Source: a virus
Taxonomy: Duplodnaviria > Heunggongvirae > Uroviricota > Caudoviricetes
DNA: 18,749 bases
Reading direction: 5' to 3' (one strand)
Virus record (IMG/VR): IMGVR_UViG_2703718769_000007
Both the position numbers and the translations under genes were made by a program. The notes beneath the pieces are model-generated. The model had not been told where the DNA came from and did not search any database. It saw nothing but the letters and a program-made list of their open reading frames with translations. Shown one piece after another: positions 5,683-5,720 of this stretch; position 1 is the first letter of the stretch; each line of letters opens with the position of its first letter.

Positions 5683-5698
5683 TCTGCCTCCTGATAAC

Positions 5699-5720
5699 AA
5701 AAAACCCGCACGCGGCGGGT
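5699..5720 (-). terminator. Intrinsic-terminator-like hairpin with U-tract, just 5' of the major tail gene RBS
   Basis: Plus 5704-5720 ACCCGC-ACGCG-GCGGGT (6-bp GC stem). On the minus strand it is followed by TTTTTGTT, then AGGAGG and ATG 5682. Confidence 0.5.

Follow-up and report, generated by a model that had tools for sequence, protein, structure and literature searches.

The late operon and its gene order

The window (the whole stretch of DNA analyzed here, 18,749 nucleotides from IMG/VR record IMGVR_UViG_2703718769_000007) shows ~94% DNA identity to Stx-converting and related lambdoid phages, for example, BP-4795 and YYZ-2008. The 161 bases around the hairpin that is the main subject of this work (hereinafter B2) are present in 1238 of the 5426 complete E. 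coli genomes (23%), in up to 8 places per genome. The identity to BP-4795-type phages and this genome survey jointly identify the window, at the level of sequence comparison, as the late operon of a lambdoid prophage that is common in E. coli. The minus strand is the coding strand for all genes in the window, and the tail module is HK97-like. From high to low coordinates, the genes are arranged as follows.

First in order, minus strand: endolysin, Ant-like and Rz-like genes, then the HNH endonuclease gene (14345-14710)
Next, minus strand: TerS (terminase small subunit), then TerL (large subunit; 11846-13507)
9845-11782, minus strand: protease-major capsid fusion gene, 645 aa (phrog_617, E = 5.6e-261)
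ATG at 9800, minus strand: 73-aa ORF (phrog_829) following the capsid gene
After the 73-aa ORF, minus strand: portal gene, present as two ORFs
Between the portal and tail-terminator genes, minus strand: head-tail adaptor Ad1, head-closure Hc1 and gp10-like genes
5744-6088, minus strand: tail-terminator gene (phrog_347)
4966-5682, minus strand: major tail protein gene, 238 aa (phrog_158, E = 1.7e-116)
Between the major tail and tape-measure genes, minus strand: two tail chaperone genes
982-4224, minus strand: tape-measure gene, then an M-like minor tail gene

Inside the blocks of this operon, adjacent genes share 4-8 nt. Only four of the intergenic gaps between TerS and the M-like gene reach 40 nt, and hairpins are found in all four. 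Given that the genes overlap within blocks and the hairpins are located in the gaps, the hairpins appear to mark interruptions of translational coupling.

The two portal ORFs overlap (454 and 353 aa, window 7211-9633), and the portal of BP-4795 is likewise split. The second portal ORF encompasses a 162-nt tandem repeat at 7680-8047 (2.3 copies, 95% matches), and its BP-4795 counterpart is longer (461 aa). The 277-nt gap between the HNH endonuclease gene and TerS (window 14100-14340) contains two direct repeats of CAGGGTATAAACAT(T/G)TTT, at 14165-14182 and 14233-14250 on the plus strand, 68 nt apart, with degenerate copies close by; these repeats may represent a cos site or terminase-binding sites. 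Among the lysis genes on the minus strand, a 113-aa lipoprotein-like ORF and the Ant-like anti-repressor ORF (15084-15425 and 16699-17394, respectively) may be morons with their own expression.

The hairpin preceding the major tail gene

The gap between the tail-terminator and major tail genes spans 61 untranslated nucleotides. The following features were identified in this gap and at its borders.

5734-5757, minus strand: hairpin B1, AGAUCAC-GGU-GUGAUCU followed by U7 (stem-loop 5757-5741), in tandem upstream of B2
5703-5721, minus strand: hairpin B2, GACCCGC / CGCGU / GCGGGUU, recognized from the sequence, a scan for terminator-like sites, the fold and compensatory changes
5696-5703, minus strand: U-tract UUUUUGUU, abutting the B2 stem
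5680-5692, minus strand: SD, spacer and AUG of the major tail gene

The stem of B2 consists of ACCCGC (5720-5715) paired with GCGGGU (5709-5704) around the loop CGCGU (5714-5710), and a G5721-U5703 wobble brings it to 7 pairs, 5 of which are G-C (-10.5 kcal/mol). The U-tract is followed by AUC, AGGAGG (5692-5687), a 4-nt spacer and the AUG (5682-5680) of the major tail gene, such that the minus strand reads ...UGA UCUUUUUUUCUACAUAAACCCUG ACCCGC CGCGU GCGGGU UUUUUGUU AUC AGGAGG CAGA AUG. The presence of a hairpin and a U-tract directly before the ribosome-binding site of the major tail gene had been proposed in an earlier reading of the same DNA (the original prediction), and both the minus-strand sequence and the fold bear this out. 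The distance between the end of the U-tract and AGGAGG, which had been put at about 5 nt, has to be corrected to three bases (AUC). B2 begins 22 nt past the stop codon of the tail-terminator gene, clear of the footprint of the terminating ribosome. Its stem, its loop, the U-tract that abuts the stem on the coding strand and its untranslated position are all those of an intrinsic terminator. A bidirectional terminator was ruled out given that the plus strand lacks a T-run after the palindrome.

Hairpin B1 had been missed in the original prediction. The tail-terminator gene ends within its 3' arm (stop codon, 5746-5744), so a terminating ribosome would melt this hairpin. B1 is lineage-specific, with one compensatory change (A-U to G-C) relative to the common variant in the relatives, and is absent from the tail-terminator/major-tail gap of HK97. 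The 91-nt region that includes both B1 and B2 folds better than 198 of 200 shuffled sequences (z = -2.46).

The start of the major tail gene has a structure of its own: a small hairpin, GGCAGA-AUG-UCUGCU (window 5688-5674, minus strand), presents the AUG as its 3-nt loop, with an unpaired probability of 0.99 for the AUG and with the SD partly paired. The analogous hairpin in HK97 is AGACA-GCUA-UGUCU.

Comparison with BP-4795 over window positions 5960-5660 revealed a drop in identity from ~99% to 88-89% that is limited to the 3' part of the tail-terminator gene and the intergenic gap. The identity recovers to 93% over 5656-5557 and to 99% over the next 100 bases, which places one edge of a divergent patch near B2 or just downstream of it; further dips occur elsewhere in the window (e.g., 68% near 5056-4957). 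In the RefSeq annotation of BP-4795, the major tail protein (ORF64, 9287-10132) starts within the tail-terminator gene and reads through the hairpin. Such an upstream start is possible inasmuch as no stop codon interrupts the frame in the 222 nt that precede the real ATG, and the annotated ORF64 is probably over-extended.

Conservation and covariation

A scan of the window for a terminator-like consensus ranked B2 first among 15 sites and the capsid-proximal site (11821-11804) second, with a total that does not exceed that in shuffled sequences (15 versus 16.9 +/- 4.3). A stricter pattern, defined as a perfect 6-bp stem with at least 4 GC pairs and a T5 run, was found once in the window versus 0.135 expected, and at least once in 10% of the shuffles. 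Window-wide counts are accordingly weak evidence, and the case for B2 is made by position and conservation.

Hairpin, U-tract and SD are retained in all but one of the loci compared (80 IMG/VR relatives and one near-identical contig from a genome collection, the contigs of which yielded 3 loci only), the single exception being a locus where foreign DNA extends up to the ATG. Beyond these close relatives, the gap between the tail-terminator and major tail genes was read in HK97, PhiR49_2, Salmonella SP-016, Klebsiella Kp4882-3, a Phytobacter prophage, Morganella IME1369_02, HK542, Fraca, Cronobacter ENT39118, and Burkholderia RY5, KS9 and Bcep176. In 13 lineages, the Burkholderia phages included, this same gap is filled by a hairpin with a U-tract. 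The major tail proteins of these lineages are 35-80% identical to that encoded in the window (35-37% for the Burkholderia phages). The hairpins are GC-rich, comprise 5-9 bp with energies from -9.7 to -18.1 kcal/mol, and in several cases carry UNCG-type loops. In each of the 13 lineages, 6-7 of the first 8 bases past the stem are U, and in every lineage the SD starts 8-13 nt after the stem.

The stems differ between lineages (CCCGC, CCCGCC, ACCGCC, AGCUGC, GACCGC, CCCGGC, GGCCCGC). RNAalifold run on a MAFFT alignment recovers the 7-pair helix, with double changes in 4 of the 7 helix pairs. The fraction of paired cells is 88%, compared with 27-50% in the control in which the partner was slid, and 13 cells are changed on both sides versus 3.5 in shuffles, none of the 500 shuffles reaching this number. 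The loops vary freely among close relatives (CGCGU, AGAU, GCU, UCCG, UGCG, UUCG, UCUG, CAUUGC); an RNA operator for a sequence-specific RNA-binding protein was ruled out because no loop is conserved. The spacing is rigid as well, with 15-22 nt from the stop codon to the hairpin (12 lineages), 18-25 nt from the hairpin to the ATG and a total gap of 52-61 nt, roughly what would be expected of the tightest packing that keeps clear of both terminating and initiating ribosomes.

The untranslated position on the coding strand and the conservation with covariation in relatives strongly indicate that B2 is non-random, and the comparative data identify it as a real element under selection. Among the hairpin sites compared, that before the major tail gene appears to be the most widely conserved. 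In a Pseudomonas relative, where 6 nt separate the tail-terminator and major tail genes, the element is missing, and no hairpin is found in the 7-nt U-V gap of phage lambda, which implies that the element is not required for lambdoid tail expression.

Related elements in the same operon and in other phages

Three further hairpins are located in the untranslated gaps of the window.

11794-11821, minus strand: element A, hairpin GGACCGC-UGCG-GCGGUUU with a U-tract, between TerL and the protease-capsid fusion gene
11780-11793, minus strand: AGGAGG (11793-11788), 5-nt spacer and GUG (11782-11780) of the capsid gene
9809-9830, minus strand: GC-rich hairpin of 9-10 bp after the capsid stop codon, with no U-tract (fold of the gap, -21.6 kcal/mol)
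4241-4264, minus strand: element C, weaker hairpin GAACCGC-UGAG-GUGGUUU with a U-tract (stem-loop 4264-4247), in the chaperone/tape-measure gap

Element A is identical in BP-4795 and aligns with the B2 element at 30 of 36 positions (score 40 versus 13.6 +/- 2.4 in shuffles). A covariance model (R1) built from the tail-proximal elements of 16 phages only was used to search 65 kb, and its top match outside the training set was element A (43.9 bits, E = 6e-11). The common architecture that the original prediction had seen in the capsid-proximal and tail-proximal elements is upheld by both comparisons. In ENT39118 and HK542, the tail-proximal hairpin is almost identical to the core of the element A hairpin. 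The protease-capsid fusion module hardly occurs outside a single clade (at least 90% identity); in its sole distant relative, from a Rhizobium phage, the gap is only 12 nt long.

The arrangement after the capsid gene is of another kind. AGGAGG (9836-9831) is followed by the hairpin (9830-9809) and then, 8 nt past the hairpin, by the ATG (9800) of the 73-aa ORF; it looks as if the hairpin brings the SD and the start codon together in a 'split' ribosome-binding site. A similar succession, GGAGG, hairpin, UUUUAACGU and the AUG of gene 6, is found after gene 5 of HK97.

Element C leads into GGAG (4236-4233) and the start codon of the tape-measure gene, ATG (4224-4222). At this site, the stem of BP-4795 differs in sequence but is compensated, AAACCUGC-UGUG-GCAGGUUU, and compensated stems were likewise seen in HK97, HK542, Fraca, PhiR49_2 and the Pseudomonas phage PARCL1pr. 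Element C is absent from the Burkholderia, Morganella and SP-016 phages and is not matched by model R1 at E<=10. In HK97, the annotated terminators display the layout of hairpin, U-tract and SD before genes 4, 12, 16 (tape measure) and 21, and in Bcep176 this layout is located ahead of the K-like and holin genes and of the gene that follows the capsid gene. The layout is thus found also before low-copy genes and marks the boundaries of operon segments rather than specifically the two highest-copy structural genes, as had been originally proposed.

A predicted terminator that Q-modified polymerase would read through

The explanation that we favor, and regard as probable by a modest measure, is that B2 is a stem-loop of the intrinsic terminator type that would stop polymerase lacking Q, would be read through in the presence of Q, and would then leave a translation boundary in the message. 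B2 lies, by this model, at the boundary of the neck and tail genes of an HK97-like late operon, where RNA polymerase would halt unless the phage Q antiterminator had modified it. The transcription stopped in this way would be stray or moron-derived, in a lysogen or early in infection, and the tail genes would be kept silent. Q-modified polymerase coming from the late promoter would pass B2. In the resulting polycistronic mRNA, the hairpin would remain as punctuation in a slot between two ribosomes: it would narrowly clear the footprint of the one that finishes the tail-terminator gene and lie immediately 5' of the area covered by the one that starts on the major tail gene. The latter gene would be translated from its own strong AGGAGG behind an unstructured U-rich leader, with no coupling to the weakly translated genes upstream.

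In addition to the terminator anatomy, the top rank in the scan, the conservation with covariation and rigid spacing, the location of the hairpins in the only gaps of at least 40 nt, the terminator annotations of HK97 and HK542, and the Q genes of BP-4795 and HK97, two further observations point in this direction. First, an abutting U-tract is needed for termination and is not needed for a plain stability hairpin. The U-tract always abuts the stem, whereas stabilizer-only hairpins have none, which suggests that the terminator geometry itself is under selection; the hairpins after the capsid gene in the window and after gene 12 of HK97 lack a U-tract. Second, such elements occur in series along the operon, with three in the window, at least 4 in HK97 and at least 4 in Bcep176. 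With several terminator-like elements in series, expression of the distal genes would be compatible only with read-through.

Other considerations temper this reading. A terminator directly before a very highly expressed gene is counter-intuitive; the transcription of a gene should be reduced, if affected at all, by a terminator located in front of it. Moreover, silencing of the late promoter in lysogens should already be achieved by tR' alone, which leaves the benefit of internal terminators conjectural. The annotation of Bcep176, which keeps the element, includes no antiterminator, and many Bcep176 genes are unannotated. The literature searched contained neither transcript-end or reporter data on this element nor a published study of these hairpins.

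Alternative explanations

The element could instead be primarily translational, with the U-tract serving as an S1/standby platform, the hairpin insulating the initiation region and termination being incidental. We consider this possible but unlikely. In its favor, the U-tract adjoins the SD in every lineage, with 8-13 nt from stem to SD, the two best copies, each accompanied by a perfect AGGAGG, precede the genes for the two virion proteins of highest abundance, and the passages of PMC5934652 that deal with U-rich leaders, in connection with rnd and S1, describe a role of this kind. The same cassette, however, also precedes low-copy genes, namely, the tape-measure genes of the window and HK97, gene 21 of HK97, and the K-like and holin genes of Bcep176, and S1 binding does not call for a covarying GC-rich stem joined to the U-tract. 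In an equilibrium thermodynamic model, the accessibility of the SD is 0.33 in the wild type versus 0.38 when the 5' arm is mutated or the hairpin is deleted, and it does not exceed that of other genes. That the hairpin insulates the SD was ruled out on the grounds that the partition-function accessibility of the SD and the start codon is unchanged by such mutation or deletion. The notion of a reused regulatory motif, put forward in the original prediction, is retained in part: the architecture is shared, but it is not reserved for the highest-copy genes, and the hairpin brings no gain in modelled SD accessibility.

An improbable alternative is that the hairpins are punctuation for processing and stability, such that after endonucleolytic cleavage they would shield one of the two new ends, 3' on the upstream segment or 5' on the downstream one, and the hairpin-bracketed segments (the capsid segment and that of the major tail and two chaperone genes) would outlive the rest of the late transcript. 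Hairpins indeed occur in 4 of the 4 gaps of at least 40 nt between the terminase and tail-tip genes and bracket exactly the capsid gene (element A and 9830-9809) and the major tail/chaperone block (B2 and element C). The annotated hairpins of HK97 flank genes 4-5 and gene 12, and the lambda capsid gene E is flanked by hairpins in the D/E and E/FI gaps. The hairpins that form the 3' brackets and have no U-tract cannot be terminators. What this reading leaves unexplained is the invariable U-tract before the major tail gene. Furthermore, conservation does not extend to the 3' bracket: Bcep176 has no hairpin in the gap that follows its major tail gene, and in the Morganella and SP-016 phages the corresponding gap is only 3-10 nt long. 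There is also no known cleavage site.

A broader proposal, which is speculative and which we likewise consider improbable, is that the cassette of stop codon, hairpin, U-tract, SD and start codon (52-61 nt) is a portable dual module that combines a terminator and a ribosome-loading platform with a homology joint. The terminator half could keep a gene block off unless the polymerase is antiterminated, and the U-tract could double as a ribosome-loading platform for very high translation after read-through. The near-identical copies (the capsid-proximal element of the window compared with the tail-proximal elements of ENT39118 and HK542) and the divergent-patch edge at B2 could reflect a short homology joint for the exchange of phage modules.

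It is highly improbable that B2 terminates a small Hfq-binding RNA, whether that RNA originates from the 3' end of the tail-terminator gene or is transcribed independently. Two hairpins with a U-rich linker and a U-tail do resemble an Hfq-binding module, weak similarity to Rfam families was detected (isrK, 19 bits against a gathering score of 50; isrD, 14 bits against 37), and the late regions of EHEC prophages encode small RNAs, such as HnrS (PMC13502914). Against this, a promoter scan found no sigma-70-like promoter near 5760-5900 on the minus strand, no Rfam family is matched at the gathering score, the HnrS sequence is absent from the window, and the supplements of the Hfq cross-linking study mention no small RNA located in tail or capsid genes. 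In addition, the stretch from the stop codon to the hairpin varies among lineages and hence offers no candidate seed region. The weak matches to Rfam Trp_leader, isrK and isrD were rejected as reflecting the generic terminator shape only, and identity with HnrS/EcOnc10 was ruled out because that EHEC prophage RNA is encoded ahead of the packaging genes and its sequence does not occur in the window.

Finally, a functionless chance palindrome beside a T-run, which would fit the window-wide total of terminator-like sites and the recurrence of the strict pattern in one-tenth of the shuffles, has a negligible probability and appears to be effectively refuted by the comparative data, that is, by the position, strand, covariation and rigid spacing kept in 13 lineages from two bacterial classes and by the occurrence of the element in those 1238 of 5426 complete E. 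coli genomes.

Implications

If the preferred reading of B2, as a terminator-type hairpin read through by Q-modified polymerase, is true, long antiterminated phage operons would be divided into blocks of very different protein output, with terminator-type hairpins wherever translational coupling is broken. The same reading would explain the silence of the structural genes in the absence of Q in many HK97-like E. coli prophages. The hairpin sites are practical landmarks for the annotation of gene starts, as in the case of the major tail gene of BP-4795, and are relevant to the engineering of phage late operons. No new question is opened by these findings, with both the element type and its HK97 counterpart already on record.

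Comparison with known systems

The REP hairpins after malE and the hairpins of the puf operon are intercistronic mRNA-stabilizing stem-loops that have no U-tract and act after a highly expressed gene. B2 resembles them in being a stable stem-loop between cistrons of very different expression level and differs in having a canonical U-tract and in being located before the highly expressed gene.

In the leader of E. coli rnd, which encodes RNase D, a hairpin precedes a U-rich tract. The resemblance to B2 consists in a terminator-like hairpin and a U-tract immediately 5' of the ribosome-binding site, and the single-stranded U-rich tract of the B2 element likewise adjoins the SD, ending 3 nt before AGGAGG; the rnd leader, however, is at the 5' end of a monocistronic message, whereas the B2 element is intercistronic. 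In the account of rnd in PMC5934652, the U-rich tract is needed for translation and has been proposed to bind the 30S subunit or S1; U-rich regions are described as binding 30S subunits and enhancing rnd translation (Zhang and Deutscher 1992, cited there), and S1 as contacting the mRNA ~11 nt upstream of the SD (also cited there).

In phage lambda, the D/E gap (6099-6121) contains GGCCGC-CUGU-GCGGCU with U7, ~20 nt before the start of E, and the E/FI gap (7163-7180) contains AUGGCCC-UUCG-GGGCCAU before the SD of FI. The lambda hairpins thereby punctuate a very abundant structural gene in the same way, although the covariance model of the tail-proximal elements assigns them only 11-13 bits and the lambda major tail gene V, in contrast to that of the window, is not preceded by a hairpin. 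Neither of the E-flanking hairpins is annotated in the lambda record, and no functional study of them was found in the literature searched.

The system expected to read through B2 is lambdoid Q antitermination (pR', tR'). Late transcription of lambdoid phages is antiterminated (PMC7326022), and that of Stx phages is under antitermination control (PMC7547250). The Q gene is located upstream of the lysis and structural genes in BP-4795, the closest annotated relative, and in HK97; in the case of the window, the Q gene and pR' lie outside it. B2 differs from tR' in position: tR' is a regulated switch directly downstream of the late promoter, whereas B2 is at least ~12 kb into the operon and is not known to act as a control point.

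The closest known counterpart is found in HK97 itself. In GenBank record AF069529, the space separating gene 11 from gene 12 (major tail subunit) carries a 'terminator, putative' (6692-6719), and the HK542 record (JQ086373) lists a 'rho-independent terminator' at 6642-6664, at the same site. Both phages share with the window the succession of a tail-terminator gene, a gap of ~60 nt and the major tail subunit gene, with a hairpin, a U-tract and an SD 9-10 nt past the stem in the gap; HK97 gp12 is 80% identical to the major tail protein of the window. The HK97 stem-loop differs in sequence, being GAACCCGCC-AGAU-GGCGGGUUU with 9 bp, and the window has the extra hairpin B1, whereas HK97 has a hairpin right after the major tail gene that the window lacks. 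The terminator function is putative in HK97 as it is in the window. The flanking gene order and the compensatory conservation of the structure both mark the HK97 gene 11/12 terminator as the counterpart of B2, which, from the sequences compared, is best regarded as an ordinary element, equivalent to a terminator already annotated in HK97, rather than a new one.
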